64,000 nt of DNA, taken from positions 5,093 through 69,092 of the forward strand of contig JACRHW010000017.1 in assembly GCA_016217555.1 (NCBI GenBank). Reading direction: 5' to 3'. The stretch is from Parcubacteria group bacterium (GTDB taxonomy: Bacteria > Patescibacteriota > Minisyncoccia > UBA6257 > JACRHW01). Under the pieces are notes generated by a model, which was not told the origin of the DNA, searched no databases, and saw only the letters and a list, made by a program, of their open reading frames with translations. Below, piece after piece: positions 3,833-54,134 of the stretch. The stretch's first letter is position 1, and the number at the start of each line of letters is the position of its first letter. The position numbers were made by a program, and so were the translations under genes.

Positions 3833-4052
3833 CATCTATCTATTTTACGCATAGCTTTGTCAGAAACTACGTTTTTTATTCGCTGTACTGTCTTGTACAG
3901 CTCACAAAAAGCCTCGTTTCTTTCGCGCTCTGCATCAAAATATATAGATGTTATAGTATTTCCTGAGCTCGCCTGTGGTGAGTTTATCGAATCCATCGAG
4001 GACCCACTACTATTGTCCTATAAGCTATCAGCTAACACCTAAAAGCTAAACT

Positions 4053-4493
4053 ATGTTGAAACGACTTGCATTTGGGGCCACTCAATGGGTAGGCACCCCG
4101 CTTTCCATTCTTATACACACGCTGTTTTTTGTGGGTATTTTTGGTTTACGTTTTATTGGGATTGGTATTGATAGTATTCTCCTTATTCTCACGACGCTCG
4201 TCTCTCTTGAGGCTATCTATCTCGCTATTTTTATTCAGATGACGGTTAATCGGAGCATGGAGAGTCTGGCGGAGGTAGAGGACGATATCGAGAGTATCGA
4301 GGAGGAGGTGAAAGAGCTTGGTGATGACGTCGAGGATATTTCGGAGGATGTAAAGGGGCTTGAAAAGGATATGGATAAAATCCAGGAAGATGACGATGAT
4401 GATGAGAGTGCAACAAAAATGACACTCGAAAAGATTGAGGCAGGTCTCCAAAAGCTTCTCGCCGATATTGAACATCTCAAGAGTAAGCAATAA
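4053..4493 (+). CDS. Membrane protein resembling the bacterial low-affinity iron permease (Fet4-like) family, with an acidic coiled-coil C-terminus
   Basis: Pattern LKRLAxxATQWVGTPxS...TxxxLxAIYLAIFIQ...NRSMESL. Confidence 0.35.
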   Translation: MLKRLAFGATQWVGTPLSILIHTLFFVGIFGLRFIGIGIDSILLILTTLVSLEAIYLAIFIQMTVNRSMESLAEVEDDIESIEEEVKELGDDVEDISEDVKGLEKDMDKIQEDDDDDESATKMTLEKIEAGLQKLLADIEHLKSKQ

Positions 4494-13048: not shown

Positions 13049-13055
13049 TAGCTTA

Positions 13056-13173
13056 AGAAATCAAAACGCAAAACGCAAAATTACAGCTCAAAACTAAAAA
13101 CTATCTTACTATTTTTTAAGTTTTAATTTTTTTGGTTGTAGTTTTGCCTTTTGACTTTTAAGTTTTGAATTTC
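13056..13173. repeat. AT-rich CAAAAC-type long imperfect palindrome (family A, copy 1)
   Basis: Arms of about 45 bp (GAAATCAAAACGCAAAACGCAAAATTACAGCTCAAAACTAAAAAC ... GTTTTGCCTTTTGACTTTTAAGTTTTGAATTTC). Homologous copies lie at 14889-14988 and 37035-37136. Confidence 0.6.
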
Positions 13174-13231
13174 TACTGTGCTTAACTACAACTTTAATTC
13201 ACGGTTTCGTTTTGTGAAAGCGTCTACGATT

Positions 13232-14878: not shown

Positions 14879-14888
14879 CCTCGGTAAA

Positions 14889-14988
14889 ATAAAAACTCAA
14901 AACGCAAAAGTCAAAACTACAACTAAAAACGTAAAACTTTTGATTTTTGAGTTGAAGTTTTGTGTTTTGACCTTTACGTTTTGAATTT
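14889..14988. repeat. Family A palindrome, copy 2
   Basis: AAAACTCAAAACGCAAAAGTCAAAACTACAACTAAAAAC ... inverted arm GTTGAAGTTTTGTGTTTTGACCTTTACGTTTTGAATTT. Confidence 0.6.
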
Positions 14989-17601: not shown

Positions 17602-18273
17602 GTGTTTCTAGTGAAGAAGATTTCTAGGGGCGTTAGGGATGCTGTGTTTTATGGTGCGTGGATTCTTTTTATGTTTTTATTGCTTGGAAACTGGAATCTT
17701 TTTTATGGTGTGAGTAGGGCCTCATTTTTTCTCTTGAGTTATGTACGTACTGTGCATGTGGCTCGAGTGTCGTGTGGTGAACTCACCGTTGATATCTATC
17801 GCGAGAAGGATATTGGACTTCGGCACGAAGACGCGTTGCAAACCACGGTTGTGGATGCATATAATGAACTACCTCGGTATCTCAAAATCTACTATTCATA
17901 TTTTTCAGATTCGGAAGAACCAATGTTTAAACGAGTACCGAGTCGGGTTAAGATCGTTATCTTGAGTGAGGCTACGTATGCTCTTTATGATCAGACGCTT
18001 GCGATAGATGGAAAAGCACACAATGAGAAGAAGAAACACCAAAAACAAACCATTAATACAGATATAATAACTCTGGGAATGCATTCTGGACCCCTGAAGA
18101 CTATTTACGTAAGGGGTAGTGGTAATGAATTTGATGCTATCGAAATGGAAAACGAACGAACGGTGCGCCACGAACTCTTTCATCATTTTTATTATGCCTA
18201 TGATCTTGGTGCGGTGATCAATGAGTGGGACGCCTATGAATTTGGTGATGAGGCGCGGGTTGAGAGGCGTTAG
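17602..18273 (+). CDS. Hypothetical membrane-anchored protein with a C-terminal HExxH motif (paralogue 1)
   Basis: N-terminal TM helix; the C-terminus carries TVRHELFHHFYYAY. Confidence 0.4.
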   Translation: MFLVKKISRGVRDAVFYGAWILFMFLLLGNWNLFYGVSRASFFLLSYVRTVHVARVSCGELTVDIYREKDIGLRHEDALQTTVVDAYNELPRYLKIYYSYFSDSEEPMFKRVPSRVKIVILSEATYALYDQTLAIDGKAHNEKKKHQKQTINTDIITLGMHSGPLKTIYVRGSGNEFDAIEMENERTVRHELFHHFYYAYDLGAVINEWDAYEFGDEARVERR

Positions 18274-18310: not shown

Positions 18311-18384
18311 ATTTCTTTTTTTATGGTAGGACTAAAGAAGGAGCTTGAAAAGTGAAGAGGTGAACCGACGTGGAGGATTGGGAA

Positions 18385-18975
18385 ATGTTATTGGTGGAAT
18401 GGTTTGGGATACTTTTTGCAATTGTGTGGATTGCGTGGGTGGTACGTGAGTATCTCTATGTATATAAACTTGCTTTGGTTTTTTGGGTGCAGTATTATGC
18501 GGTTACTACGTTTGCAAGAAAACGATGTGTATATGACGAGTCTGTATTAGGAGCACGTGTTTTGATATATGTAGAGGATGGTGTCGTGCTTCGCGACCTT
18601 GAATTGTTGCCACAGTGCATTGAGGAGATATATGAAGATTTTAATTTATTTGTCGTTTTCTTTAAACTTGAGGAGTTCCTCTCTGATAAAGACCCACACG
18701 ACGTAACCGCTGTTTTTTATAAAGAAAACACGTATAATATCCTTGATCGATTGTGTCATATGAATACACGTGGATTTTATCTGCCAGCTTTAAGAAAAAT
18801 GTCGCTCAGGACAAATGCAATACTTTGTGATCTTGACGGTATGCTTGGAAAAACGGTGCGCCACGAGTTTTTTCACTACTTGGTACATGCATTTTTTGTG
18901 AAGGGTGCACTTACGTATGAACAAGAGGAGGGGTGTGCGCGTGTGTTTGAGGAGTGGCGGTCGATGGCAAAATAA
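18385..18975 (+). CDS. Hypothetical membrane-anchored HExxH protein (paralogue 2)
   Basis: TVRHEFFHYLVHAFF sits at the same relative position as in the upstream gene, and the layout matches. Confidence 0.4.
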   Translation: MLLVEWFGILFAIVWIAWVVREYLYVYKLALVFWVQYYAVTTFARKRCVYDESVLGARVLIYVEDGVVLRDLELLPQCIEEIYEDFNLFVVFFKLEEFLSDKDPHDVTAVFYKENTYNILDRLCHMNTRGFYLPALRKMSLRTNAILCDLDGMLGKTVRHEFFHYLVHAFFVKGALTYEQEEGCARVFEEWRSMAK

Positions 18976-19296: not shown

Positions 19297-21804
19297 ATGC
19301 AGAAATATAACCATGAAAAAATAGAGAAGAAGTGGCAGAAGGAGTGGGCGAATGATAATTTTGCTGCCTGGCGTGTAGAGGAGGGGGGTAAGAAAAAAAA
19401 GAAGTATGTTCTTGATATGTTTCCGTATCCTTCGGGGGATGGGTTGCATGTAGGACATATTGAGGGATATACCGCTTCCGACATTGTGAGTCGTTTTTCT
19501 CGGATGAGAGGATACAATGTACTTCACCCTATGGGATGGGATGCTTTTGGGTTGCCTACTGAAAATTATGCTATCAAACACAAGGTGCACCCTGCGAAGG
19601 TAACTGAAAAAAATGTTAATAATTTTCGCGCTCAGTTACAGCGTATGGGGTTTAGCTATGATTGGTCGCGTGAGGTAAATACTACAGACCCCGAATATTA
19701 TAAATGGACACAATGGATTTTTTTAGAACTTTTTAAACGCGGGCTTGCTTATGAGGCGGAGGTACCAGTCAACTGGTGTCCCAGCTGCAAAACAGTGCTT
19801 GCAAATGAGGAGGTGATTGATGGAACGTGTGATAGGTGCCACTCCGAAGTTATTCATAAAAATTTAAAACAATGGATTCTTAAAATTACTGCTTATGCAG
19901 ATAGGCTTCTTTCTGACCTTGATGATCTCGATTGGCCAGAACGTATTAAGGAGATGCAGAGGAATTGGATTGGAAAATCTTATGGGGCGCTTATAAAATT
20001 TCCTCTAGCGAATTTCAAATTTCCGCTTTCAGTTTTTACGACCAGACCCGATACGTTATTTGGTGTAACCTATGTGGTTCTTGCTCCAGAACACATACTC
20101 ATACAAGAGTTAAAAGATTATATTACGAATTGGGATGAGATCGTGGAATACGTAGGTGTAGCACGAAATAGGAGCGAACGTGAGCGGCAAGAGAAGAAGG
20201 AAAAAACAGGAATTGAACTTAGGGGTATAAGTGTTATCAATCCTGCAAATCAAAAAGAAGTTCCCGTGTGGATTGCTGACTATGTACTTATGGGGTATGG
20301 CACAGGGGCGGTAATGGCAGTACCCGCGCACGATGAGCGTGATTTTGCTTTTGCTAAGAAATATAGACTTCCTATAACAACGGTTATCCAGCCACTTTCT
20401 TATGAATGGGATGTTACGGTAGCGGCATACACCGACGAGGGGAGAATGGTTAATTCGGGAGAGTTTGACGGATTAGGTTCGGAAGAGGCGAAAAGGGCAA
20501 TTGTTGTAAAACTTCGGGAGCAAGGTTTCGCAGAAAATACGGTAAAATATAAACTTCGTGATTGGGTGTTCTCGAGACAAAGATATTGGGGAGAACCCAT
20601 TCCGCTTGTATTTTGTGAGGCGTGTGCGGAAAGAGTGAGAAAACAGAAAACAGAAAACAGAAAACAGAATGTGAACTTGGGAGAGATATTAAACCCCGGA
20701 TGGATGGCGGTGTCGGAGGGAGATTTGCCGGTTACCTTACCAAACGTAAAAAATTATGAGCCGACGGGAAACGCGGAGTCACCACTTGCTGGGATAACAA
20801 CATGGGTGAAAACGACATGTCCAAGGTGTGGAGGGGTTGCGCGACGGGAGACAAACACAATGCCACAGTGGGCGGGATCAAGCTGGTACTACCTCGCTTA
20901 CGTTATGCGAGGGAATTCAAAATTCAAAATTCAAAATTCAAAATTGTTTCAGTACTGGTTGCCTGTCGATATGTATATCGGGGGAGCAGAACATGCGGTG
21001 TTGCACCTTCTCTATGCGCGTTTTTGGCACAAGGTGTTGTATGATGCAAAAATCGTTTCTACCAAGGAGCCTTTTTATGCATTACGAAATCAGGGTCTTA
21101 TTCTTGGTCCCGATGGGGTAAAAATGTCTAAATCACGTGGAAATGTGATTAACCCCGATGCGGTGGTAAGGGAGTATGGTGCTGATACTCTTCGTATGTT
21201 CGAGATGTTCATGGGCCCACTTGAGGATTCAAAACCATGGGATATACGTAGTATTGTTGGCGTGCGAAGATTCTTAGAGAGGGTTTGGGGGTTACAAATA
21301 AAAATTAAAGATCAAAAATTAAAGATCAAAAATGACGGTGAAGACATAAGGAGACTTATGCATCGGACAATAAAGAAGGTGACGAAAGATATCGAGGAGA
21401 TGCGTTTTAATACTGCAATTTCTGCGCTTATGGTATATGTAAACGCGCTTGGAGGACAGGAGGATATTTCAAGGGAATCTTACACAACACTTCTTGTTTT
21501 GCTTGCGCCATTTGCCCCACATATCACTGAAGAATTGTGGCAATTGATGGAAAACAAAAATTCAATTCACTTTGAAAAATGGCCTATCTATGATCCGAAA
21601 CGTATCATAGAGGAGTATGGTATTCTTGTGGTACAGGTAAATGGGAAAACAAGAGATTCCATTGAGGTGGCAAAAGGTGTTTCTGAGGAAAATGCTTTGG
21701 AAATTGCCACCAAAAGGGATCGTATTGCTTTTTGCCTTAAGGGGAAAGAAATTATACGTGTGGTGTATGTGCAGAACAAACTTATCAATATTGTAGTAAA
21801 ATAA
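19297..21804 (+). CDS. leuS: Leucyl-tRNA synthetase
   Basis: HIGH motif (HVGHIEGY), KMSKS (VKMSKSRGN) and class-I LeuRS architecture. It contains in-frame tandem-repeat insertions. Confidence 0.92.
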   Translation: MQKYNHEKIEKKWQKEWANDNFAAWRVEEGGKKKKKYVLDMFPYPSGDGLHVGHIEGYTASDIVSRFSRMRGYNVLHPMGWDAFGLPTENYAIKHKVHPAKVTEKNVNNFRAQLQRMGFSYDWSREVNTTDPEYYKWTQWIFLELFKRGLAYEAEVPVNWCPSCKTVLANEEVIDGTCDRCHSEVIHKNLKQWILKITAYADRLLSDLDDLDWPERIKEMQRNWIGKSYGALIKFPLANFKFPLSVFTTRPDTLFGVTYVVLAPEHILIQELKDYITNWDEIVEYVGVARNRSERERQEKKEKTGIELRGISVINPANQKEVPVWIADYVLMGYGTGAVMAVPAHDERDFAFAKKYRLPITTVIQPLSYEWDVTVAAYTDEGRMVNSGEFDGLGSEEAKRAIVVKLREQGFAENTVKYKLRDWVFSRQRYWGEPIPLVFCEACAERVRKQKTENRKQNVNLGEILNPGWMAVSEGDLPVTLPNVKNYEPTGNAESPLAGITTWVKTTCPRCGGVARRETNTMPQWAGSSWYYLAYVMRGNSKFKIQNSKLFQYWLPVDMYIGGAEHAVLHLLYARFWHKVLYDAKIVSTKEPFYALRNQGLILGPDGVKMSKSRGNVINPDAVVREYGADTLRMFEMFMGPLEDSKPWDIRSIVGVRRFLERVWGLQIKIKDQKLKIKNDGEDIRRLMHRTIKKVTKDIEEMRFNTAISALMVYVNALGGQEDISRESYTTLLVLLAPFAPHITEELWQLMENKNSIHFEKWPIYDPKRIIEEYGILVVQVNGKTRDSIEVAKGVSEENALEIATKRDRIAFCLKGKEIIRVVYVQNKLINIVVK

Positions 21805-22339: not shown

Positions 22340-22353
22340 ATAAAACAAAGTCT

Positions 22354-22436
22354 TTGTATCTAGTATCTTGTATCTGGTATGTGTTCATAGGGGCAGATAA
22401 ATACTAAATACAAGATACTATATACTAACTACTAAG
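22354..22436. repeat. GTATCTAGTATCTTGTATCTGGTATG-type hairpin repeat (family D, copy 1)
   Basis: 5' module GTATCTAGTATCTTGTATCTGGTATG and inverted 3' module ATACAAGATACTATATACTAACTAC. Related copies lie at 31886-31921 and 45431-45556. Confidence 0.5.
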
Positions 22437-22441
22437 TAATT

Positions 22442-23152
22442 ATGATTACTTTTCATATTATTACTATCTTTCCTGAAGCACTTGAGGGATATTGTAATGC
22501 ATCTATATTGAAGCGTGCGCAGGTGAAAAAGCGTATCAAAATCATTCTTCATAACCTTCGTGATTTTTCGAAGGACAATCACAAATCTGTTGATGATCGT
22601 CCCTTCGGTGGAGGGCCCGGTATGGTACTCATGGTAGATCTTCTCGTGGGGGCGCTGAAGCATATCCTCAAAAAAGATTTCAAGTTAGATGCAGGAGGAA
22701 AACTTGTGGTGGATTCAACAAAATATCGTATTGTACTTTTCGACACCCGCGGAGAACCATTTACCCAAGAAATTGCCCGTTCATTTTTGCCCAACCCTAT
22801 AAGCCATAAGCTAAAAGCTAAAAGCTCTCACATTATTCTTATCTGCGGTCATTACGAAGGGGTCGATGAACGTATCAAGGAATTTTGTACAACGGATGTT
22901 ATTTCTATTGGTAATTATGTTCTTTCGGGAGGAGAGGTGCCTGCCATGGTGGTAGTAGATGCTGTTACACGCCTTATCCCTGGTGTTTTAGGAAATGAAG
23001 AATCTATTGAAGAGACAAGGGTAGTTAAGGGATATGCAGTATACACCCGCCCGCGCGACTATTCTCCCAAAAGGAACATTGTATGGAAGGTACCAGACCC
23101 TCTTTTTTCGGGAGACCCTAAAAAGATAGATGAGTGGAGAAGAGAGCATTGA
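22442..23152 (+). CDS. trmD: tRNA (guanine37-N1)-methyltransferase
   Basis: N-terminus ITIFPEALEGY... and the ICGHYEGVDERI SPOUT-knot motif. Confidence 0.85.
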   Translation: MITFHIITIFPEALEGYCNASILKRAQVKKRIKIILHNLRDFSKDNHKSVDDRPFGGGPGMVLMVDLLVGALKHILKKDFKLDAGGKLVVDSTKYRIVLFDTRGEPFTQEIARSFLPNPISHKLKAKSSHIILICGHYEGVDERIKEFCTTDVISIGNYVLSGGEVPAMVVVDAVTRLIPGVLGNEESIEETRVVKGYAVYTRPRDYSPKRNIVWKVPDPLFSGDPKKIDEWRREH

Positions 23153-24580: not shown

Positions 24581-24653
24581 GCGCCCATAGCTCAGCTGGT
24601 AGAGCAGCTCCCTTTTAAGGAGATGGTCGTAGGTTCGAATCCTACTGGGCGCA
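24581..24653 (+). tRNA. tRNA-Lys (anticodon UUU)
   Basis: Cloverleaf GCGCCCA...TGGGCGC-A with anticodon loop CTTTTAA and T-loop GGTTCGAATCC. Confidence 0.85.
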
Positions 24654-31885: not shown

Positions 31886-31921
31886 CTTGTATTTAGTATA
31901 TCGTATCTTGTATAGTGTATG
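31886..31921. repeat. Family D repeat fragment (copy 2)
   Basis: CCTTGTATTTAGTATATCGTATCTTGTATAGTGTATG. Confidence 0.4.
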
Positions 31922-31954
31922 AATCCGCCGCAGGCGGATTATATCAGATACTAT

Positions 31955-40751: not shown

Positions 40752-42728
40752 ATGCGTACACTTGTAAAAATCTTTCTTTTTCTTTCTATTTTTTCTTTAA
40801 TAATTTTTTCTACCGATTTATTTTTTCCCTATATTACGGGTAAGATTTTTGCATTTCGTTTTTTCATTGAATTTGCTTTTATCGCATGGATTCTTGATCT
40901 TTTTTTGCGAAAAACGTTACGGTTCCGTTTTTCCGAGCCAATAGTGAAGGCTCTTCTCATTTTTTCCGGCTCCCTAATTGTTTCTGCCTTTTTTGGAGTA
41001 AATCCTTCGTTTAGTTTTTGGTCTGATTTTGAACGTAGCGAGGGACTATTCTCCTTTTTTCATTATCTCGCGTTCTTTATTATGCTTCTTGATGTGTTTG
41101 TCATGGATGATTACTATCGTTTAATTAAAGCATTTCTTATTATTTCTCCTTTTATTGCCTATTATCAGTTTTCTAATTATGTAAATATTGAAAAACATGC
41201 TTTTGGAAGAATTAATGGACTTCTTGGAAATCCTTCCTATGTGGCAACATTTCTTCTTTTTGTTTTTGGTCTTGGTTTTTATCTTGTTCTTAAAAATAGA
41301 GAACTGTTTCGCTCAACAAAAGACGTCTTTGTGTTGTTTGAGAACTGGCTTTGGTGTTTAATTTTATTGATTGACATTCCTGCCTTTTTCTTTACACAAA
41401 CACGTGGAGCATATGTGGGCGTTTTTGTGGCATTGGTTGTTTATCTTATTATGCTTGGGCGATATGGGGTGGCAAAGGAAAAAAAGATGGCCCGGTACAG
41501 TCTTCTTTTTCTGAGCATTTTTATCGTTTTGGGCAGTGTGCTTATCTTAAAAACAAATGTACTCCCATCGAATTTAAAAGATCCGGGAAGTTTGGTTTCT
41601 CGTTTTTCTACATGGAAGGCCGCTTTGCGTGGATTTCTTGATCGTCCTTTGCTCGGATATGGTCCCGAAAATTTTAACATTGCTTTTGATAGACACTATG
41701 ACCCAGTCCATTCGGGACTAGAGACGTGGTTTGATCATGCACACAATCTTCCCGTTGAGCTTCTTGCGGTGACAGGCGTTGTCGGTTTTCTTGCGTATTT
41801 ATATATTTTTTATATTTTTTTTCGCTATTACTTCTCGATTATCCTTAAAAAACGTCCTATCTATGAAGCGGCTCTTTTCCTTGCAATCCCTGTAGCATAT
41901 TTCATTCAAAATCTTGCCCTATTTGATTCTCTTACCTCTTATGTTTTATTTTTTACATTTCTCGCCTTGGCACGCACCATCGTACTAAGGGAAACCAATA
42001 CATATAGTACCAATATAGTGTATTTTGGACGACCATTATTTATTGGGTTGTGTTGCATCATTCTTTTTTTTGCCCCCCTTTTTGGGATATATTCAAACAT
42101 ATTTGCACTACAAAAAAACATGCGCCTTCTCGCCACATTTTTACCACCACAACAATCGTTTTCTCCGAGCGCAAAAGTAAATGTATATAAGCAACTGTTT
42201 GATTTGCCGGGTTTTGTGGGGAGACGTGAGATTTCTACCGCTCTTGCAAAAGATATATTCGATTGGTCTTCTTCTCGTAATCTTAGTAAGTTTTCCAGAG
42301 AAGATTTTGATGCTTTGAATGAAGGAATAAATATGAGTGAAGAATATCTAACACATGACCCTTCTCATATTCGCAATTATTATTTGTTGGGATATGCTTA
42401 TTCATCAATTGGGGGTTATTTTAAAGACAGAAAGGCTCTGATTCGCGGAGAGGATATCCTCAAAAGAGCAGATAAGTTGAGTCCTGGTAGAATAGAATTT
42501 CTTGAAGTTCTGATTAAAAATCTTGGCGCGCAGAAGAAATATGACGAAGCTCTTAAGTATTCTTTAGAAATTATACGATTGCGCCCCGATATGGAGGCGG
42601 GTCACCGATTCGCCGGAGTCTTTTATCAAAAGATAGGAGAGACAAAGAAGGGGAAAGAAGAGCTTGGCAAAGCATTATTGATTAATCCATCTTCAACCGC
42701 ATCCATATTTTTAGAAGAGAACAAGTAG
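40752..42728 (+). CDS. O-antigen-ligase-like (Wzy_C) membrane protein with C-terminal TPR repeats, paralogue 1
   Basis: TQTRGAYVGVF ... WFDHAHNLPVELL is a Wzy_C/O-antigen ligase signature. The C-terminal 200 aa are TPR-like. 658 aa. Confidence 0.55.
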   Translation: MRTLVKIFLFLSIFSLIIFSTDLFFPYITGKIFAFRFFIEFAFIAWILDLFLRKTLRFRFSEPIVKALLIFSGSLIVSAFFGVNPSFSFWSDFERSEGLFSFFHYLAFFIMLLDVFVMDDYYRLIKAFLIISPFIAYYQFSNYVNIEKHAFGRINGLLGNPSYVATFLLFVFGLGFYLVLKNRELFRSTKDVFVLFENWLWCLILLIDIPAFFFTQTRGAYVGVFVALVVYLIMLGRYGVAKEKKMARYSLLFLSIFIVLGSVLILKTNVLPSNLKDPGSLVSRFSTWKAALRGFLDRPLLGYGPENFNIAFDRHYDPVHSGLETWFDHAHNLPVELLAVTGVVGFLAYLYIFYIFFRYYFSIILKKRPIYEAALFLAIPVAYFIQNLALFDSLTSYVLFFTFLALARTIVLRETNTYSTNIVYFGRPLFIGLCCIILFFAPLFGIYSNIFALQKNMRLLATFLPPQQSFSPSAKVNVYKQLFDLPGFVGRREISTALAKDIFDWSSSRNLSKFSREDFDALNEGINMSEEYLTHDPSHIRNYYLLGYAYSSIGGYFKDRKALIRGEDILKRADKLSPGRIEFLEVLIKNLGAQKKYDEALKYSLEIIRLRPDMEAGHRFAGVFYQKIGETKKGKEELGKALLINPSSTASIFLEENK

Positions 42729-42776: not shown

Positions 42777-44753
42777 ATGCGTGTTCTTGTAAAAATCTTT
42801 CTTTTTCTTTCTATTTTTTCTTTAACGTTTTTTTTAGCTGACTATTATTTCCCCTATATTGTCAGCAAGGTATTTCCTTTTCGATTGTTTATCGAGCTTG
42901 CGACAATCTCGTGGCTCATCAATCTCTATTGGTTTCGTATAATACGTTTTAAGTTTTCTGAACCTATTGTAAAGGCTGTTCTTGTTTTTTCTGGGGCACT
43001 TCTTGCCTCCACTCTTTTTGGGGTGAACCCACTCTTTAGTTTTTGGTCTAATTTTGAACGGAGCGAGGGGCTTTTTTCTTTCTTGCATTATTTAGCATTT
43101 TTCATCCTCCTCATTGATGTATTTTCTGAAGATGACTACTATCGTCTTATTAAGTTTCTTCTTCTCCTCTCCCCGCTTATTTCTTATTATGGGTTTTCGA
43201 GTTTTCGGGATGCTAATACTTATCAGTATGGAAGAGTGTTTGGGGTTTTTGGAAATCCCTCATACCTTGCGGCATTTCTTATTTTTGTGTTTGGGTTTGG
43301 TGTGTTGTTGATTTTGAGAAATATAGAATTTGCTAAAGTTTTGAAGGATCCCTTGTTGATTGTCGAAAATATACTTTGGATAGTTCTTTTGTTGGGAGAT
43401 GTTCCAGCATTCATTCTTACACAGACAAGAGGTGCTTACATTGGACTTTTGGTTGGCGTGCTTGTTTTTCTTATCTTTCTTTTGCGGCAGGGAAAGGGGG
43501 TTCAGAAAAAATATGCTGTCGGAGGTCTCATTGTACTTCTTTCTCTTGTTGCGCTTGCGGGGTTTGTCATTTTAAAAACCAAAATAGCTCCGGCGAATCT
43601 TAAGGATCCATCCACACTTGTCTTTCGTTTTGCTACGTGGGGTTCAGCATGGAAATCATTTCTCGACCATCCTCTTTTCGGGTATGGTATGGAAAATTTT
43701 TCAGTTGGATTTGATAAGCACTATAACCCAATCCATTCGGGTGTTGAAGTCTGGTTTGATCACGCCCACAGTGTGATATTTGATGCACTTGCAAGCACGG
43801 GTCTCTTGGGACTTATTTCCTATATTGCTATTTTTGTAGTACTATTTCGTTTCTATCTTCCCGTGATCACAAAACGACGCCCGGTGTTGGAGGCTGGTGT
43901 ATTCTTTGCCCTTCCTATTGCATATTTTGTCCAAAACCTTGTTTTGTTTGATACCCTTTCTTCCTATATCCTTTTCTTTCTCTTTCTTGGTGTGGTGCGT
44001 TCAGTGTTTTTGAAGGAGACAAGCAAGAATAAAGAGAAAACTTTTTTTGCGGCACACCCCATACTACTAAGTTTTGTAGTGGTGATGCTTGTTATTGCTG
44101 TAGTTTTTGGTATTTATGCGAACTTTGTTGCTTATCAAAAAAATAGGGAGTTAAGGACCGCCTACACTCTTTCTCGCCAATCCCAACTTCCTCGTGGAGT
44201 GGAGGAGTATCGAGGATTACTTGATATGCCAGGATATTTAGGAAGAAGGGAGGTGATTAAGGATTTTGCCGCTTATTTGTATGAGTGGTCCGCAAAATCT
44301 GATTTGCGGTCTCTTTCCAAAGAGGATGGTGGTGCCCTGGGTGGGGGCTTGAGGACAGTAAACGATTTTCTTGACAAGGAAGATCCTCAATACCTTAATG
44401 GATATTATCTTTTTGCGAATACCTATAACGTGATTGCATTTAAATTGGGTGATGCTACCGTGTTTCAAAAGACGGAATCTACCCTAAAAGAAATGAATAC
44501 AAAGAGCCCAAATCGCATAGAAATAATCAATTTGCTTGCAGATAATCTTATTGCACAGAGAAAGTATGACGAGGCGCTTAGTTATGCGCTTCAAATTACA
44601 ACACTGCGTCCTGACATGGAGGTGGGGCATAGGCTTGTTGGGTTTGTATACAATAAGATAGGGAGGCGTGACGAAGCTAAAAAAAAGGGGGAGGAGGCTT
44701 TACGTATCAATCCAAGCTCTACCGCCGCAGAATATCTTAAAAAAATACGTTAA
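42777..44753 (+). CDS. O-antigen-ligase-like (Wzy_C) plus TPR membrane protein, paralogue 2
   Basis: Same length (658 aa) and architecture; TQTRGAYIGLLVG ... WFDHAHSVIFDAL. The 5' 50 nt are nearly identical to paralogue 1. Confidence 0.55.
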   Translation: MRVLVKIFLFLSIFSLTFFLADYYFPYIVSKVFPFRLFIELATISWLINLYWFRIIRFKFSEPIVKAVLVFSGALLASTLFGVNPLFSFWSNFERSEGLFSFLHYLAFFILLIDVFSEDDYYRLIKFLLLLSPLISYYGFSSFRDANTYQYGRVFGVFGNPSYLAAFLIFVFGFGVLLILRNIEFAKVLKDPLLIVENILWIVLLLGDVPAFILTQTRGAYIGLLVGVLVFLIFLLRQGKGVQKKYAVGGLIVLLSLVALAGFVILKTKIAPANLKDPSTLVFRFATWGSAWKSFLDHPLFGYGMENFSVGFDKHYNPIHSGVEVWFDHAHSVIFDALASTGLLGLISYIAIFVVLFRFYLPVITKRRPVLEAGVFFALPIAYFVQNLVLFDTLSSYILFFLFLGVVRSVFLKETSKNKEKTFFAAHPILLSFVVVMLVIAVVFGIYANFVAYQKNRELRTAYTLSRQSQLPRGVEEYRGLLDMPGYLGRREVIKDFAAYLYEWSAKSDLRSLSKEDGGALGGGLRTVNDFLDKEDPQYLNGYYLFANTYNVIAFKLGDATVFQKTESTLKEMNTKSPNRIEIINLLADNLIAQRKYDEALSYALQITTLRPDMEVGHRLVGFVYNKIGRRDEAKKKGEEALRINPSSTAAEYLKKIR

Positions 44754-44791: not shown

Positions 44792-45445
44792 ATGGAAGAT
44801 TTTTCTCAGATATTTCAGACTATCGTTCGTGCGCTTTACATGGTTGCAGGGGGTATTTCTGATGTTTCTTATAAGGAACATTTTAAGTCTGAAATTTTTC
44901 TTTTTGTAGAGGCATATTTTAGACGCGATGTGGAATTGTTTAAAGAACGTGGTTTTATTCTCGATTTCTTTTTGAAGACGGCTATGGATTTGCAGTTTAC
45001 GGCAGAAGAAAATTATATTGTTTTGCACAGGGAAATAAAATCCTTTACAGACAAGTTTGTGGCACATGCAAACGACAAACTTCTTGTTTCCGGTATTCTC
45101 GATTTCCGGAAACTGTTTCCGGAAAAACCAATGCCTGAAGGAGGAGAGGCGGAAGGGGTGGGAAGCCGTTTTGGGATCAATCTCCCTATCCGTGCACCAA
45201 AGATGCGATCGTTTTCTGGTAACAGGATTGTCGGGCTTACGGAACGTCAGCAGTCTATTCTGGAACTTCTCTGTGAAAAAGAAAGTATTCCGCTTATGGA
45301 TGTCCTTGCTCGTTTTCCGGAAATGAATGAGAAGACTATTCGGAATGATCTTCGACTATTGTGTGAGAAGGGGTATGTAAACCATATAGGAAGTGGCGGG
45401 CGGGGAAGTAGATACCAGTTTGTACGTGAAGTATCTAGTATTTAG
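44792..45445 (+). CDS. Hypothetical protein with a C-terminal winged-helix/DeoR-like HTH
   Basis: RQQSILELLCEKESIPLMDVLARFPEMNEKTIRNDLRLLCEKGYV. The start was moved to the ATG at 44792 because the track start lies in a repeat. Confidence 0.4.
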   Translation: MEDFSQIFQTIVRALYMVAGGISDVSYKEHFKSEIFLFVEAYFRRDVELFKERGFILDFFLKTAMDLQFTAEENYIVLHREIKSFTDKFVAHANDKLLVSGILDFRKLFPEKPMPEGGEAEGVGSRFGINLPIRAPKMRSFSGNRIVGLTERQQSILELLCEKESIPLMDVLARFPEMNEKTIRNDLRLLCEKGYVNHIGSGGRGSRYQFVREVSSI

Positions 45446-45556
45446 TATCGTGTATCTGGTATGACCAACCAATAAGAAAGAATTAATAGTAAGGAAAATC
45501 AAAGAATGTGCTTGTGGGGTATACTAACTACAAGATACTGGATACAAAATACACAT
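45431..45556. repeat. Family D repeat, copy 3
   Basis: GTATCTAGTATTTAGTATCGTGTATCTGGTATG ... GGTATACTAACTACAAGATACTGGATAC. Confidence 0.5.
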
Positions 45557-46088: not shown

Positions 46089-49000
46089 ATGGGTAATTCC
46101 AAATTTAAAAAAGTTGCGACGAAAGTTGTTGCAGTAAGCCTTTCGCTTACTACCGCAATTTGGCTTTCTGGCGCGGCTATGGCGCTTCCTTTGGCAGCGA
46201 AAGCGGCCACTGTTGATGAGCTCATGGCACAAATCACTGCACTTCAAGCGCAGGTTGCTAGTATGCAGGCTCCAGTAGCTTCAAGTGCGTATTCTTACAC
46301 ACGCAATCTTACGGTGGGATCGCGTGGAGCTGACGTAACAGCTCTTCAGGATACATTAATCTCTGGTGGATATCTCAAAGTATCTGCAACAGGATACTTT
46401 GGTGCTTTGACTAAGGTAGCTGTAAAGGCGTGGCAGGCAGCAGCCGGACTTCCTTCAACAGGATATTTCGGTCCTATGTCTCGCGCAAAGGTAGCAACCG
46501 TTGGTGGAACACCTACCTCAGGTACAACACCAACACCAGGCATAACACCTACCCCAGGTACAACACCAGTTCCAACTGGCACTGGCTTGGCCGTAGCAGT
46601 TGACGCATCAAATCCGGCAGCGGGTAGTTTTCCAGCTGGTGGAAGTCAGATTCCATTCTTGAAATTGAAGTTCACAGCAGGTTCAGCGGATACAACCGTA
46701 ACTGCAATGAATGTATATCGTGGAGGACTCTCTAGCGATAACGATATCTCGAATGTTTATTTGATGGATGGTTCATCGGTTTTGGCAACCAATCTTGGTT
46801 TGTCGAGCGGAAAAGCTTATTTCTCTCTCGCAACTGGATTATTTACAGTTAAGGCGGGAACAAGCAGGGTTGTTACTGTTGCTGCAGATATTTCTGCAAC
46901 AAACACAGCATCTCATGCTTATACATTTGGTGTAAATTCAGCAGCTGATATTACTCCATCTGCGGGTGTTACAGGTACATTCCCAATGACGGGTAATACC
47001 ATGACAGCCGTTTCAGTAACAAATCCGGGACTTGCAACACTTACAGTTGCCAGCGTTTCAACAGGTGGTTCTGTAAACGCAGGAACAACTGGTTTCTTAG
47101 CTGGCCAATTCTCTCTACAGTCCGCAAATAGTGCAGTAAGTGTAAAATCTGTTAAGTTGACAGATGTAGGAACCAATACTCATTCATCAGATATCTCAAA
47201 CATCAAATTGATGAACGGAGGAACACAGGTGGGTGCAACCATTGTGAATGCAAATTCAGATGGTACGGTTGTGTTTAATCTTTCAAGCAATCCTCTACGG
47301 GTTGCATCAGGTCAGACAATTAACCTTTCTGTATATGCTGATGTTGTAGGAGGTGTTAATCGAACACTTCGCTTCACAGTTCAGCACTCTTATGATGTTA
47401 CCGCTACCGACATGACATATAATGTTGGTGCTGGTCTTCTTGGAACATATCCAGTACAGGCTTCTTCTGTAAGTATCAGCTCTGGCTCTTTGGTGGTTAG
47501 CAAGAACGCAGCTTCTCCAACAAACTATATTGCTCGTGGTGCAACCAATGCAACATTGGCAAAGTTTGACTTTAATGCTTCTGGTGAAGCAGTGAGGATT
47601 ACTGCTATTACCTATCAGGTTGGTACTTATAGTGCTAATCAAGAAAATGCAGTATGGAATAACTTGAAGCTCGTTGATGATCAGGGTGTTCAAATTGGAA
47701 CAACCGCTACAGCCGTTTCTTCTGATAGCGTTTCCACAACACAACACTCAACGGCCCTTACTGGCTTGAACTACATTATTCCTGCAAATACAACTCGTTC
47801 GCTTTCTATTGTTCTTGATACTGTATCAACATACGCAGGAAGCATGACAGGAAGTATTACTTCAATAACAGCTCAGGGTTACACCTCGCTTACAGCTATT
47901 CCAAATCCTGGTCCAGATACTTCAACACACGCAGGGAATGCTCTTAGCGCATCTTCAAATCCATTCGTTGCTTCACTTAACAATGGTGTAGGTGCAATTA
48001 GTAGTGTTTCTGGTGCACAAGGTATCAAAATAGGATCTTTTGCCTTGGCAGCAGGTGCAGCAGAAGGAGTAAATGTTACAAGTCTTACCGTGAAAACCGG
48101 TTCGGCCGTTTCATCTCAATATCGTAACTTGAAAGTTATGGTGGGCAGTACTCAGCTAGGTAATACGAACTCAACGCTTACTGATAGTACTGAGTATTCA
48201 GTTTCAGCTTCTAATATCATGATCCCAGTAGGTGGACAGATTGTTGTAGATGTCTATGCTGACACCGTTTCTGGTGCAACATCGTCAGCTGCAGCCGTTC
48301 TTCTTTCTGGTGGTTCAGCAAATGGTGCTTCAACCAACACAACGAGGACTCTTACTAATTCTAGCGGCACAAAGCTTACGAGCTCTGTTACTGTAACTGG
48401 TCAGGTTGATACTATAACAGCATCAGGGAATCTTACAGACGCGTTAGCTCCCTCACCTGTAGTGTCCCAACAAGTTGCTATGGGTGTAACAGGCGTGGTT
48501 CTTGGAACGTTCAAACTTTCTGAGACAACCAATAGCGAGTCAATTGATGTTACGAGCATTGTTGTAAATTCAACTTCAACATCTGCCAACGACATCAAGA
48601 ACCTTAGGCTTATGAATGGAACAACTCCAGTTGGTTCATCTGTGGCAGGTCTTCCTGGTTCAGGTGCACAAGCAACTACCTTTACGATACCTATCGATCC
48701 TGTCACTGGTCACTCTGTCTTTATTGTTCCTCAGAATAACTATGTAACTTTGAGTGTTGTTGCTGATACTAATGATGCAACAGGTGGTGCCGCTTCTAAT
48801 GACACCATAACAGTTGGTCTTGGTGCAGTTACTGGTCAAGGACATTCCTCGGCAGCACCTGCAAATGCAACACCTACAAGCGTAGACAGTTCCGCAACCT
48901 TTACTCTTCATCGCGCAACAATGAGTGTTGCCGTTGCTTCCGGAAGTTATGTGGATAACAGCATTACGGACAACAAGATCGTGGCAAAGTTTAGCTTTAC

Positions 49001-49502: not shown

Positions 49503-49736
49503 ATGAAAAAGACTATTCACCCAGAGTATTTTGAGGCACATGTCTCTTGTGCGTGTGGAAACACATTTACGGTAGGTTCTACGCAGAAGGAGATACGTAC
49601 CGAAATTTGTGATAAATGCCATCCTTTTTATATTGGAAAGGAGCGCTTGCTTGATGTCGCAGGACAGGTTGAGAAATTTAAATCAAGGGCGGGGAAGGCG
49701 GTAACGAGAAAAAAGAAAACAGTAAGTAGAAAATAG
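49503..49736 (+). CDS. rpmE: 50S ribosomal protein L31
   Basis: [17 protein letters not shown]...[10 protein letters not shown] is the L31 zinc-ribbon signature. Confidence 0.85.
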
Positions 49737-49739
49737 AAC

Positions 49740-51580: not shown

Positions 51581-51654
51581 GCCAGAGTAGCTCAGCTGGC
51601 AGAGCAACACTTTTGTAAAGTGAAGGTCGCGAGTTCGAATCTCGCCTCTGGCTC
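51581..51654 (+). tRNA. tRNA-Thr (anticodon UGU)
   Basis: GCCAGAG...CTCTGGC-T acceptor stem, anticodon loop TTTGTAA and T-loop GTTCGAATC. Confidence 0.8.
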
Positions 51655-51687
51655 ACGCAAATTTTTATAAAATCGGGATAAAGTGAA

Positions 51688-51786
51688 CCCCGTTAGAAGT
51701 AGGTAAAAACATTTGTTGTTCGTCTCGTGTATATCATAGATGGTACAATAATGTAGAAAAATTGTTTTTGTATACTTCTAACGGGG
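51688..51786. mobile_element. Family F MITE-like element, copy 2, inserted into the 3' half of the split tRNA (TGAA duplication)
   Basis: CCCCGTTAGAAGTAG ... CTACTTCTAACGGGG. The flanks are AAGTGAA| and |TGAAGGTC. Confidence 0.55.
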
Positions 51787-51827
51787 TGAAGGTCCTCGGT
51801 TCGAATCCGAGAGGTGGCTCAGGTATT

Positions 51828-51910
51828 GGGTGCGTCGCATAGCGGCAATTGCATGTGGCTGTAAACCACACGTCCTCGTGACTACGGGGGTTCGAGTCCC
51901 TCCGCACCCA
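51828..51910 (+). tRNA. tRNA-Tyr (anticodon GUA)
   Basis: GGGTGCG...CGCACCC-A acceptor stem, a 3-bp D-stem, anticodon loop CTGTAAA and a long variable arm (type II). Confidence 0.8.
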
Positions 51911-51926
51911 CTTAATGGTGTATAAG

Positions 51927-51957
51927 AAAAGCGCCATTGTGTGGGCGCTTTTTGTTT
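51927..51957. terminator. Bidirectional Rho-independent terminator
   Basis: GCGCC-ATTGTGTG-GGCGC followed by TTTTTGTTTTT, between the tRNA cluster (+) and the patatin-like gene (-). Confidence 0.5.
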
Positions 51958-52821
51958 TTAGATTTGTTGGAGGGCTTGAATGGTGAGTTTGTATCCTTGA
52001 TCGATAGAGTCTGAAATCTCTCCTTTTGAGAAATTGACGACGGTAAGATTCTGATACGTCTTGATCGGCTTAATGATGAGGATTTTCTTTCTGCCCACGA
52101 TCATTTCAAGCATGCGTAAACTTTTCTTTAGATTGTCAAAATAGATATAGTTGGATCCCCCCAGAGACTTCCAGCTTCCGGCAGGCATAAGGATGGGCCT
52201 TAATGCAGGCGTAAAGGGGTCTATTTGATGTTCTGGGTCAATTACAATGATGAGGTCAAGCATCTTTTTTATATCTTCTAGGGCTTCGGGGATCCATACA
52301 AAACCATCACAATAATCCATACCATTTATATGAACAGGAGGCATAATACCCGGAATACTTGCAGAAGCAAGAATTAATTTAATCAGGTACTTTTCGTTAT
52401 TACCTTGTGTCTTTAAACTTTTTGAAGAGAATAATTCTGCTTCATTGGTATTAAGATTTCGGGCTATTATGTCTAGGCGGGCATGAGAGGCAATGATTTT
52501 TCCTGCATCTATTTTTTTGATCAGTTCTTCAACGCGTTTATTGGGTTTATTTCTTCCTGCCTGGTTTAAGATAATGGTAAGTAAATCAAATAACTGACCA
52601 ACCCCCATCCGTTCTACATCTTGCCAAACACGTATTAGGGGATCGGCTGTAAAGTCATCTGAAATAAATTTTGCACCGTTGAATGTTCCTCCTGATACGA
52701 CTTGTAGGTAGGGGATATTTTCCTTTGGAATGTATTCTGTGATTGCTTTAAGGGCACCCGCCTGGAAGGCACATTTACAACCTCCGCTGGGCAGTATAAT
52801 TCCGACTTTTTGATGTTTCAT
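51958..52821 (-). CDS. Patatin-like phospholipase family protein
   Basis: N-terminus ILPSGGCKCAFQAGAL (Gly-rich oxyanion motif) and VVSGGTFNG (GxSxG-like). Confidence 0.45.
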   Translation of the reverse strand: MKHQKVGIILPSGGCKCAFQAGALKAITEYIPKENIPYLQVVSGGTFNGAKFISDDFTADPLIRVWQDVERMGVGQLFDLLTIILNQAGRNKPNKRVEELIKKIDAGKIIASHARLDIIARNLNTNEAELFSSKSLKTQGNNEKYLIKLILASASIPGIMPPVHINGMDYCDGFVWIPEALEDIKKMLDLIIVIDPEHQIDPFTPALRPILMPAGSWKSLGGSNYIYFDNLKKSLRMLEMIVGRKKILIIKPIKTYQNLTVVNFSKGEISDSIDQGYKLTIQALQQI

Positions 52822-52957
52822 AGTTTTTCCTCCTTATTGTGTCAAAGTGCACACCTTACTACTATCTAGCGCGAATGAGCCTTTCTGTAAACCCATACAC
52901 TCTACTCTTCTCTTTTTTCTAAAACTTTGATAAAGTAAGTCTTAGTGTATAGATATC

Positions 52958-53029
52958 GCCGGACTAGCTCATTGGTAGAGCGCATCCCTGAAGAGGATGG
53001 CGTACCCAGTTCGATTCTGGGGTCCGGCA
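52958..53029 (+). tRNA. tRNA-Phe (anticodon GAA)
   Basis: GCCGGAC...GTCCGGC-A acceptor stem, anticodon loop CTGAAGA and T-loop GTTCGATTC. Confidence 0.85.
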
Positions 53030-53094
53030 CAATAGAGCTCTATCTTCTAAAGAATAAGCTTTGCTACGGGCTTATTTTTTGTTATCATGAAAAT

Positions 53095-53679
53095 ATGATT
53101 AATAAAGAAAAGCTTTTTGAATTATATACGCATGAAGGTAAATCAATGCAAGAAATTGCAATACTTTTGGGTTGCTCTGTTCACACTGTGGTTTATTGGA
53201 TGCAAAAGTATGATATTAAAAGGCGTTCTATAAGTGAGGCGGTATATAGAAAATGTAATCCAGGCGGAGATCCTTTTGAATTTGTTTTTCCAACCAATCA
53301 AGAAGAAGCACAATTATTTGGTTTAGGGATTGGTCTTTATTGGGGAGAGGGAACAAAAGCAAACGAGAGTTCTGTCCGTTTAGCCAATACCAATCCCGAG
53401 CTAATTAAGAAATTTATAGAGTTTCTTATTACATTTTTTAATATTAAAAAAGGTGATCTTAGGTTTGGCTTACAGATTTTTACAGATATTGATCCTAAAA
53501 AAGCTATGGACTTTTGGATAAAAAAGCTTACAATAAACAGGGATCAATTTTATAAGACGATTATTACGAAATCTGGTTCACTGGGTACTTATAGAAAGAA
53601 AAGTGAATACGGAGTGATTAGTGTTATGTATCACAATACTAAGATGAGAAATGTGTTAGTTGGTCTTTTGCCAATGTAG
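53095..53679 (+). CDS. HTH protein with a LAGLIDADG-like motif (candidate free-standing homing-endonuclease-like gene)
   Basis: N-terminal HTH KSMQEIAILLGCSVHTVVYWM, then LFGLGIGLYWGEGTK, which resembles the LAGLIDADG / GxxxGEGS motif. The stop overlaps the next tRNA. Confidence 0.35.
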   Translation: MINKEKLFELYTHEGKSMQEIAILLGCSVHTVVYWMQKYDIKRRSISEAVYRKCNPGGDPFEFVFPTNQEEAQLFGLGIGLYWGEGTKANESSVRLANTNPELIKKFIEFLITFFNIKKGDLRFGLQIFTDIDPKKAMDFWIKKLTINRDQFYKTIITKSGSLGTYRKKSEYGVISVMYHNTKMRNVLVGLLPM

Positions 53680-53742
53680 CTCAGCTGGTAGAGCAACTCC
53701 ATGGTAAGGAGTAGGTCCGCGGTCCGAATCCGCGCATTGGCT
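53670..53742 (+). tRNA. tRNA-Thr (anticodon GGU)
   Basis: GCCAATG...CATTGGC-T acceptor stem and anticodon loop ATGGTAA. Confidence 0.85.
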
Positions 53743-53813
53743 CTGGTCTGGTTTTCTTGAAAAGCTTGTTACTTTTTTGGAAGTGTGATATATATGTTTA
53801 TTACCTTATAATT

Positions 53814-53984
53814 ATGGCAACATCAAAATTTACTGCGAATTTGTTACGTCTTAAATGTACCGGCTGTGCCCGGATGAATTATTATACCCGCAAGAACAAA
53901 AAGACTGTTGAGCGCAAGCTTGATCTCAAAAAATATTGCAAGTGGTGTAAGATGAGGAAGTCTCACAAAGAAGTAAAGAAGTAA
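53814..53984 (+). CDS. rpmG: 50S ribosomal protein L33
   Basis: KCTGCARMNYYTRKNKKTVERKLDLKKYCKWCKMRKSHKE is the L33 signature. Confidence 0.8.
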   Translation: MATSKFTANLLRLKCTGCARMNYYTRKNKKTVERKLDLKKYCKWCKMRKSHKEVKK

Positions 53985-54063
53985 TAGGATAGTTTTTCTT
54001 GAATTTCGGATACAATAAGTTACAATTGAAACACATCCCAAGAGATGTGTTTCTTTTAATAAT

Positions 54064-54134
54064 GGGGCTATAGTTCAATGGTAGAATGTTGGTCTCCAAA
54101 ACCAATGATCAAGGTTCGAATCCTTGTGGCCCCG
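54064..54134 (+). tRNA. tRNA-Trp (anticodon CCA)
   Basis: GGGGCTA...TGGCCCC-G acceptor stem, anticodon loop CTCCAAA and T-loop GGTTCGAATCC. Confidence 0.85.

Follow-up and report, generated by a model that had tools for sequence, protein, structure and literature searches.

Cyanobacteria harbour two families of small repeats relevant to the arrays described here, the short tandemly repeated repetitive (STRR) sequences reportedly described by Mazel et al. in 1990 and the very small dispersed repeats (SDRs) that Elhai et al. are said to have reported in 2008. Among prokaryotic simple sequence repeats (SSRs), heptanucleotides have been recognized since 2007 as the most over-represented long class in bacteria and are reported to be the most abundant long class in many prokaryotes; no cause has been accepted, and a hypothesis of slippage related to the polymerase footprint has been put forward (Mrazek et al. 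2007, as related in PMC4692102 and PMC4679880). Direct repeats of the heptamer TAACTGA occur in marine Beggiatoaceae, Cyanobacteria and Bacteroidetes, with a patchy phylogenetic distribution that suggests horizontal spread (MacGregor 2015, PMC4679880). Two further groups are REPINs, which are dispersed elements akin to miniature inverted-repeat transposable elements (MITEs) and repetitive extragenic palindromic (REP) sequences (PMC3116915), and open reading frames (ORFs) for the intervening sequence protein (IVP), which occur in rRNA insertions of the Candidate Phyla Radiation (CPR) (bioRxiv 10.1101/2024.02.27.582315). Here we analyze a 64,000-nucleotide stretch of DNA from a Parcubacteria group bacterium (contig JACRHW010000017.1, positions 5,093 to 69,092; hereafter the window), in which leuS, the gene for leucyl-tRNA synthetase (LeuRS), carries three in-frame heptamer arrays, referred to as segments 1 to 3 (Table 1). 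We propose that these arrays are probably passenger copies of a dispersed family of heptamer modules that are rewritten whole at the DNA level and filtered by selection.

All three arrays were detected by Tandem Repeats Finder (TRF) and by a separate exact scan, with 100% matches throughout, and they are the longest perfect tandem repeats with periods of 4-20 nt within the window. Their matched runs of 25, 25 and 20 compare with a longest run of 10.6 on average, and 13 at most, in 100 third-order Markov simulations of the window. An initial annotation, made from the sequence alone, had pointed out these three repeats, and both the repeats and the peptides it quoted are indeed present in the translation. 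Its boundaries and copy numbers (20640-20667 with four copies, an end at 20946 with 4.7 copies, and 21301-21335 with 2.5 copies) held to within 1-4 bases and are amended in Table 1, the phase in which a unit is written being arbitrary. Segment 2 is the canonical module AATTC(AAAATTC)4 save for its last base. The two half-units of segment 3, AAAAATT and AAAGATC, agree at 5/7 positions, so that this segment, too, is built of heptamers, in two alternating versions; if it consisted of AAAAATT alone, it would hold an in-frame TAA. The unit length is not a multiple of three, as the annotation had stated. At the RNA level the arrays are unstructured (fold z-scores of +1.4, +0.7 and -0.5), and an Rfam scan of the window found no match at them, its only hits being seven tRNAs elsewhere; an RNA structure or known RNA family at the leuS arrays was accordingly ruled out.

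The host gene is intact, in agreement with the annotation, and its product is a bona fide bacterial LeuRS, scoring 1061 bits against the full-length TIGR00396 leuS_bact model (cut-off 548). A 100% identical protein is on record as leucine--tRNA ligase of a Parcubacteria group bacterium metagenome-assembled genome (MAG), with the Pfam domains PF00133, PF13603, PF08264 and PF09334. Residues 1-835 align end to end with Thermus thermophilus LeuRS (1H3N) except for the leucine-specific domain (T. thermophilus residues 583-636), which is missing at about residue 607 of the window protein and from its clade. The KMSKS motif can be recognized in the alignments, and the HIGH motif, in the form HVGH, does not vary across a 15-sequence alignment. 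The annotation had placed the repeats in surface loops of the editing and leucine-specific regions and regarded them as insertions. Variable surface segments they are; however, none of the three lies within the editing or the leucine-specific domain, and only segment 1 represents a net insertion relative to T. thermophilus LeuRS. Segment 1 lies inside a 25-residue clade-specific insertion (residues 445-469) that is absent in T. thermophilus, directly follows the first CxxC (CEAC) of the ZN-2 knuckle and holds a conserved GExLNPGW. Segment 2 occupies a loop of the same length as T. thermophilus DPHNDRLPFDPEKA, ahead of the W-x-P-V-D motif, and segment 3 falls in the linker opening the anticodon-binding domain, which is shorter than in T. 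thermophilus. These placements rest on the 1H3N alignment and not on an AlphaFold2 model, which was poor (built on the 15-sequence alignment, with a mean predicted local distance difference test score of 61.8 and a predicted TM-score of 0.42) and in which the three segments are modeled as coil or at low confidence, a weak hint as to their conformation. As a separate observation, some LeuRS relatives carry C-terminal NUDIX fusions (PF00293).

To place the arrays in an evolutionary context, the DNA of ten relatives (57-83% identity) was fetched, and a metagenome scan with a clade-specific leuS motif added 80 further loci; the controls were leuS loci, mostly of non-CPR bacteria, among the matches listed from a full LeuRS alignment scan. 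Across the 91 clade leuS genes, 79 perfect period-7 arrays were counted in 42 of the genes, a rate of 35.6 per 100 kb; the rate is 3.9 per 100 kb in the flanks of these genes (1 Mb) and 0.83 per 100 kb around the leuS genes of other bacteria (1.45 Mb), and periods other than 7 are near zero. The repeats are as unusual for LeuRS as the annotation had judged them to be: only one of 80 control leuS genes holds a perfect array, and that gene is also from the CPR. The window itself contains ten period-7 arrays of at least 25 nt by TRF. Within the enzyme the arrays are concentrated at about eight hot spots, which in residue coordinates of the window protein are 236-240, 270-277, 365-374, 447-457, 537-545, 667-681, 719-727 and 755. 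The prediction that the segments are lineage-specific did not hold, as dozens of related LeuRS genes have heptamer arrays at these sites, built of other units, and the description of the repeats as recent applies to the present sequence of each array, which is young, and not to the sites, which are old.

The contents of these sites differ between lineages. At the segment 1 site, close relatives have a decayed or a different array. At the segment 2 site, relatives carry GATTCCA x4.9, AATTCCC x4.6, AATTCGA x4.7 or ATTTCCA x4.3, each perfect in its own lineage, and in one relative an array of the same length has decayed. The segment 3 site is hypervariable: where flank identity between genomes is 89-96%, no fewer than five unrelated states are seen. 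A further site, at residue 272, has a loop of 24 residues in 63/71 genes, and depending on the lineage its units are AGAATCT, AAATCTC, AAAATTT or AAAAGAT in one register. The annotation had offered an orthologue comparison by which the repeats might turn out to be coincidental codon usage; what emerged was not the same peptides without DNA repeats but different peptides at the same places, each encoded by a perfect heptamer array of its own, which supports the view that the repeats are events at the DNA level.

The units nonetheless form a family. When compared at the best rotation, 59/71 non-redundant units agree with AAATTCA at five or more of seven positions, and the consensus unit AAAWTYC fits most of them. 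Their bias in orientation on the coding strand follows from the reverse complement of AAATTCA, which contains TGA. The arrays also have a characteristic size: perfect arrays in the clade reach 34 nt at most, with lengths peaking at 32-34 nt, and TRF arrays, in which mismatches are allowed, have a mode of 30-33 nt in leuS (59/122 within 29-34 nt). Other coding sequences and non-coding DNA show this mode as well. The modal array thus corresponds to five cores at 7-nt spacing, typically 33 nt or 11 codons.

That the arrays might be produced by assembly or sequencing, through collapsed or spurious repeats, is highly improbable. The window and most of its relatives are MAG contigs, and De Bruijn assemblers can collapse tandem repeats, but collapse would yield lengths near the largest assembler k rather than 33 nt and would rarely keep the frame. 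Arrays are also found in frame in full-length ORFs assembled independently (NCBI, JGI, ENA and Logan), and arrays of the same kind are present in finished plasmids of cultured cyanobacteria, such as AATCCCC x4.6 in Planktothrix.

The constancy of site 272, where a pattern of L-x-x-x-I-x-N is conserved at constant length, raises the alternative that the peptides are functional, being lysine-rich, heptad-like loops selected for contacts with, for example, tRNA or the ribosome in CPR bacteria, with the DNA periodicity a by-product of a duplication of seven residues. The segments are basic, hydrophilic and located at recurrent sites, as such a role would suggest. However, the period is 7 nt and not 21, so that each residue is read from another frame of one heptamer, a regularity beyond the reach of selection on protein; the peptide at one site can be wholly changed between close relatives; the RNA is unstructured; and the modules also occur in non-coding DNA and in TrmD, MetRS, TatD, PglX and phage-like ORFs. 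We consider this alternative very unlikely.

Turnover of the arrays is fast and concerted, with each array homogeneous within a lineage and different between lineages. Among 73 orthologous array pairs, mean array identity was 96.6% where flank identity averaged 99.2%, 73.5% where it averaged 92.7% and 64.2% where it averaged 89.4%. In loci L127 and L128, whose leuS genes are 96.4% identical, a neighboring 575-residue protein holds arrays at the same codon position, (AAATTCC)4.4 in L127 (16676-16706) and (GGAAGTT)n in L128 (15603-15635), between 70-nt flanks that are 98.6% identical. Every unit is changed at the same three of seven positions (A>G, C>G and C>G); read on the opposite strand, the L127 unit is similar to that of L128. 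L161 (13881-13911), which is more distant at 84% leuS identity, carries exactly the L127 array. A diversity-generating retroelement was considered as a source of such changes and rejected, as the L127/L128 substitutions are not adenine-specific and no template copy with flanks was found. No reverse transcriptase was seen among those ORFs of the window that were annotated, a subset of the whole.

The lengths of the 73 pairs bear on two further explanations. The differences were 0 (49 pairs), 3, 6 or 9 nt; a few pairs differed by 1 or 8 nt, and an outlier of 71 nt is a poorly projected non-coding pair. Not a single pair differed by 7 or 14 nt, a result that comes mostly from coding arrays and is weak for non-coding ones. 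The annotation had stressed that slippage by a single unit would shift the frame of LeuRS; this framing is weak, since the arrays are 32-34 nt long, corresponding to five cores or about 11 codons, and show no differences of 7 or 14 nt. A contingency locus, in which unit slippage would toggle LeuRS between on and off states or between isoforms, has the classical phase-variable architecture in its favor, namely a coding array with a unit that is not a multiple of three. Yet leuS is a single-copy essential housekeeping gene, all orthologues long enough to judge are in frame, variants of plus or minus one unit are absent from the 73 pairs and the copy number is merely about 4.6, which together leave this proposal scarcely credible.

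The main rival to the rewriting of whole modules is that these are ordinary microsatellites, in which heptanucleotides slip in place, frame-preserving states survive and no mobile or templated system is involved. On this account a seed of 1.6 units gains three units to give 4.6, and repeated contraction and re-expansion by three units homogenizes the array. The general abundance of heptanucleotide SSRs is in keeping with it, as is the sum of 28 nt and a stretch of microhomology, which yields the 30-34 nt observed; leuS TRF arrays of about 44-66 nt could be intermediates with three additional units, and unit-level variants do occur between close relatives, for example between L126 and L166. Several observations point away from plain slippage, however. 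The 30-33-nt mode extends to non-coding arrays, which are free of any frame constraint, whole-unit length differences are lacking among the orthologous pairs, and in L127 and L128, between nearly identical flanks, all units are switched at three of seven positions and the orientation is apparently reversed. The occurrence of one unit at unlinked loci within a genome, the consistent borders of the modules and their presence in GC-rich genes, all described below, likewise fit slippage poorly. We therefore regard it as unlikely, albeit the most serious of the competing accounts.

Units are shared within genomes more than expected. Identical units were found in 12% of site pairs within a leuS gene and in 2.3% of those between genes (permutation p = 0.0008); L100, for instance, uses AGAATCA at three sites of its leuS and L104 uses AATCTCA at two. 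In the window, the coding arrays have intergenic partners (Table 1), as judged against a similarity null for array pairs with a 95th percentile of 73% and a 99th percentile of 80%. Segment 1 and the intergenic array at 49707 have 84% identity over 32 nt in a common register, and segment 2 matches the hairpin arms at 13142 (the right arm; 83%, to the reverse complement of segment 2) and 14892 (81%). In the same way, the in-frame trmD array and the intergenic array at 4018 share a register and are 87% identical across 30 nt. The orthologous trmD of L082 instead holds (CAAAATA)x4.3 (L082:10593-10622), and the hairpin at 22356 is kept in that locus with point changes.

Table 1. Positions in the window of leuS, its three arrays and the other heptamer arrays and hairpins.
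Feature	Position	Strand	Description
leuS coding sequence	19297..21804	+	835 aa, host of segments 1 to 3; ORF, TIGR00396, identical protein and 1H3N alignment
Segment 1 in leuS	20638..20669	+	(AGAAAAC)x4.6, 32 nt, five AGAA cores; encodes RKQKTENRKQN, residues ~448-458
Segment 2 in leuS	20914..20945	+	(AATTCAA)x4.6, 32 nt, five AATT(C) cores; encodes NSKFKIQNSKL, residues ~540-550
Segment 3 in leuS	21300..21333	+	(AAAAATTAAAGATC)x2.4 = (AAAAATT AAAGATC)x2.4, 34 nt, five AAARAT cores; encodes IKIKDQKLKIK, residues ~668-679
In-frame array in trmD	22797..22826	+	(CTAWAAG)x4.3; encodes ...ISHKLKAKSS...; TRF, TrmD assignment
Intergenic array	4018..4050	+	33 nt, CTAAAAG family; ends 2 nt before ATG at 4053; partner of trmD array
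Intergenic array	49707..49738	+	(AGAAAAN), 32 nt; abuts rpsB start codon at 49740; partner of segment 1
Intergenic hairpin	13062..13172	.	arms (CAAAACN)n and (NGTTTTG)n; fold 13055-13178, -31.1 kcal/mol, z = -5.1
Intergenic hairpin	14892..14960	.	heptamer-array arms, AAAACNC family; fold 14885-14965, z = -3.4
Intergenic hairpin between PAP2 gene and trmD	22356..22435	.	arms (GTATCTN)n and (NNNATAC)n; fold 22350-22441, z = -4.4
(GTATNNN)x5 array	31888..31922	+	directly upstream of efp
(GTATNNN)x5 array	45430..45464	+	89% identical to array at 22356

Modules of the same kind extend well beyond the clade. In IMG/VR, exact matching located (AAATTCA)3.9 at 21 loci and (AAATCCA)3.9 at 13; the contigs concerned have 22-65% GC, and the perfect arrays have a modal length of 33 nt (10/34 loci). 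In ORFs of the contigs with 57-65% GC, the modules appear as in-frame, sharply bounded AT-rich islands of the form AATYC(AAAATYC)4, and their borders are consistent, beginning and finishing with AATYC. A 33-nt module identical to the segment 2 type lies in an ORF of 57% GC in L180. In a BREX PglX methyltransferase the module sits within an 18-residue insertion that is absent from 8/8 aligned homologues, one of them 87% identical; no target-site duplication or terminal inverted repeat was evident at module insertions. Identical AT-rich arrays in GC-rich genes are not readily explained by local slippage. Modules were also found in TrmD, MetRS, TatD and phage-like ORFs as well as in non-coding DNA, and an AATTCAA array is visible upstream of jamI in Lyngbya.

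The presence of arrays in LeuRS, MetRS, ProRS and TrmD had suggested mimicry of the anticodon loop, an idea that was abandoned because TatD, PglX, phage-like ORFs and non-coding DNA hold these modules too; the tRNA-related genes with arrays are simply neighbors of leuS. We also note an IMG/VR locus of 63% GC (L207:10078-13398, minus strand) with a stop-to-stop ORF of 1107 residues that contains about seven heptamer-coded segments in both orientations, among them IQNPKSKIQN, RVKSEELRVKSEE, ISNLQFPIS and ILDFGFPILD, each an AT-rich island in a GC-rich gene.

A second context for heptamer arrays emerged from control locus L009, where a PF05635 '23S rRNA IVP' gene lies between (GATTTTG)4.6 and (CAAAATC)4.6. 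All three IVP homologues in 2.7 Mb of fetched loci (L009:20700-21150, L001:12400-12970 and L104:15120-15570) have heptamer arms, and all eight plasmid IVP genes (L171-L178), from Chloroflexota, five cyanobacterial genera, Bacteroidota and Spirochaetota, have inverted ones. Inverted heptamer arrays thus bracket 11/11 of the IVP genes examined (Avd-like, four-helix bundle), spanning six phyla, and the finished plasmids with an array-bracketed IVP gene include those of Nostoc, Planktothrix, Gloeocapsa, Pseudanabaena, Chlorohelix, Bernardetia and Treponema. Several of the arms (L009, L104, L171 and L172) use AAAATCY units, as do the CPR arrays in leuS. The sole PDB entry for an IVP homologue, 2RLD, has five chains. 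In the window, the hairpins at 13062, 14892 and 22356 are located just past gene ends and resemble IVP cassettes devoid of an ORF.

We favor, as the probable explanation of the leuS repeats, a module of five short cores at 7-nt spacing, typically 33 nt, that would be renewed as a whole array, with array-to-array conversion or templated re-synthesis in a 7-nt register as the favored candidates, and not by gradual point mutation, peptide selection or slippage of one unit. Selection would purge the copies that break genes. Arrays would persist in LeuRS because the surviving copies lack stop codons, encode hydrophilic peptides (rich in K, N, Q, S and I), keep the frame and lie in about eight permissive loops, and these peptides would be passengers that serve no function themselves. 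Outside coding DNA, the modules would take the form of inverted, hairpin-forming pairs; the IVP cassettes may be a fuller form of this element family, and rewriting may be tied to them. A wider reading, which we raise as a tentative possibility, is that the arrays are the footprint of an uncharacterized cross-phylum system that writes frame-neutral, five-core modules of 33 nt, with an IVP gene and inverted arrays as its fuller form. Writing could then proceed by templated conversion or by oligonucleotide-like incorporation at existing arrays and be efficient in repair-poor CPR cells, and an IVP pentamer might bind in the register set by the five cores at 7-nt intervals, in line with the five chains of 2RLD.

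Several points weigh against rewriting or against a part for the IVP in it. No donor template or enzyme for rewriting was identified. A polarity with sharp 5' and decayed 3' ends, seen by eye in 10/10 arrays of 26-27 nt, gave a non-significant p = 0.07 across all 54 partly homogeneous arrays and was set aside. Some differences between close relatives, such as those between L126 and L166, involve a single unit or a single base, for which slippage or mutation suffices. The IMG/VR loci include arrays of 35-48 nt and one of 94 nt, so that 33 nt is a modal size and not a rule. The model offers just 'many permissive loops plus persistence of target arrays' for the nine-fold excess of arrays in leuS over neighboring genes, the clade sample was itself drawn by means of a leuS motif, and the data are nearly all metagenome assemblies without read-level support. 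With regard to the IVP, the window had no match to profiles built from 3 and from 10 sequences, and about 1.2 Mb of CPR sequence held one IVP gene only, a pseudogene. Given this scarcity, the IVP link is correlative and could reflect a shared tendency in place of a shared mechanism.

Other features of the window were noted in passing. The (GTATNNN)x5 family (22356-22383, 31888-31922 and 45430-45464) combines a constant 4-nt core with three variable bases; its members have 77-89% mutual identity, and each is located at a gene end or just before the next gene (efp, trmD). The array at 49707-49738 sits where the ribosome-binding site of rpsB would be expected. Upstream of leuS, two ORFs without a family match, 17602-18273 (223 aa) and 18370-18975 (201 aa), share a similar terminal TVRHE(L/F)FHH motif and, on the strength of this motif, may be paralogous, putative metallopeptidase-like proteins; locus L084 has counterparts at the same position. 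Two adjacent O-antigen-ligase-like (Wzy_C) genes of 658 aa (40752-42728 and 42777-44753) have the look of a tandem duplication, with a short repeat, TCTTTCTTTT, at 40771 and 42796. An 18-nt repeat, (AACACCTACCCCAGGTAC)x3.3, at 46508-46567 is in frame in a 1096-aa protein with a peptidoglycan-binding domain and, unlike the heptamer arrays, is an ordinary codon multiple. Five tRNA genes form a loose cluster at 51581-54134 (51581, 51828, 52958, 53670 and 54064), and two more are at 24581 and 34928.

The leuS locus provides a tractable handle on heptanucleotide repeats, as its arrays occupy fixed, alignable positions in a universal gene, which makes it possible to trace on a phylogeny how they arise, are rewritten and decay. 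Should the IVP link prove causal, a large orphan protein family would gain a role, and a mutational process would come to light by which surface loops of essential proteins are reshaped in the CPR and beyond; the cross-phylum system, if real, would supply a function for the very common IVP family and explain the bacterial excess of heptanucleotides. On a practical level, heptamer segments will be a source of error in alignments, phylogenies and structure predictions for CPR proteins and of spurious 'low-complexity' ORFs.

The searchable literature yielded nothing on such heptamer arrays in the CPR or Parcubacteria, on in-frame arrays in CPR synthetases, on a 33-nt module or on heptamer-repeat arms of IVP genes. 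Several properties of the arrays do not appear to have been described: their conserved in-frame hot spots within an essential gene, the 33-nt module of five cores, the rapid and concerted replacement, and the association with every IVP gene of the sample. Among the known systems, the TAACTGA repeats resemble the leuS arrays in having a specific heptamer in two to six copies, which lie mostly just upstream of start codons with few inside ORFs (PMC4679880). In contrast to the leuS units, TAACTGA contains forward stop codons and is almost never coding, and no mention of housekeeping-gene hot spots, a size mode or an IVP association was found for these repeats (PMC4679880). The 23S rRNA intervening sequence (IVS) and its IVP (PF05635) share an inverted-repeat stem around a small ORF, the arms of which are heptamer arrays in 11/11 loci; arms of the AAAATCY type are a feature defined in this analysis and not in the literature. 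The intergenic elements of the window at 13062, 14892 and 22356 have such stem-pairing inverted arms, whereas the leuS arrays are solo, unstructured and translated, with no IVP gene in the window.

SDRs, MITEs and REP elements are, like the heptamer arrays, shorter than 100 nt, dispersed, present or absent between close relatives and sometimes tolerated in genes, and often form hairpins. The heptamer arrays likewise occur as dispersed copies with conserved sequence and borders, as seen in the same-register partners and in identical 33-nt modules on unrelated contigs. They differ in their internal periodicity; no target-site duplication or terminal inverted repeat was seen, and their turnover in leuS is mostly replacement at fixed sites with little change in length, as opposed to insertion elsewhere. 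Phase-variable contingency loci share with the leuS arrays a coding SSR with a unit that is not a multiple of three; the leuS arrays are set apart by an essential host gene, an intact frame and the lack of unit-number polymorphism in the 73 pairs. Closest of all are the prokaryotic heptanucleotide SSR and STRR sequences, which consist of a few tandem 7-nt copies, are over-represented relative to other periods, are dispersed and are often directly upstream of start codons. The leuS arrays are members of these known heptanucleotide repeats, with at least three head-to-tail copies beyond chance expectation, at many loci and with period 7 dominant. The known cases have been characterized as intergenic and variable in copy number, whereas the leuS arrays lie in frame in an essential gene at conserved sites and are further distinguished by the five-core mode of 33 nt, a cross-phylum consensus unit and replacement of whole arrays at a pace far above the divergence of their flanks.

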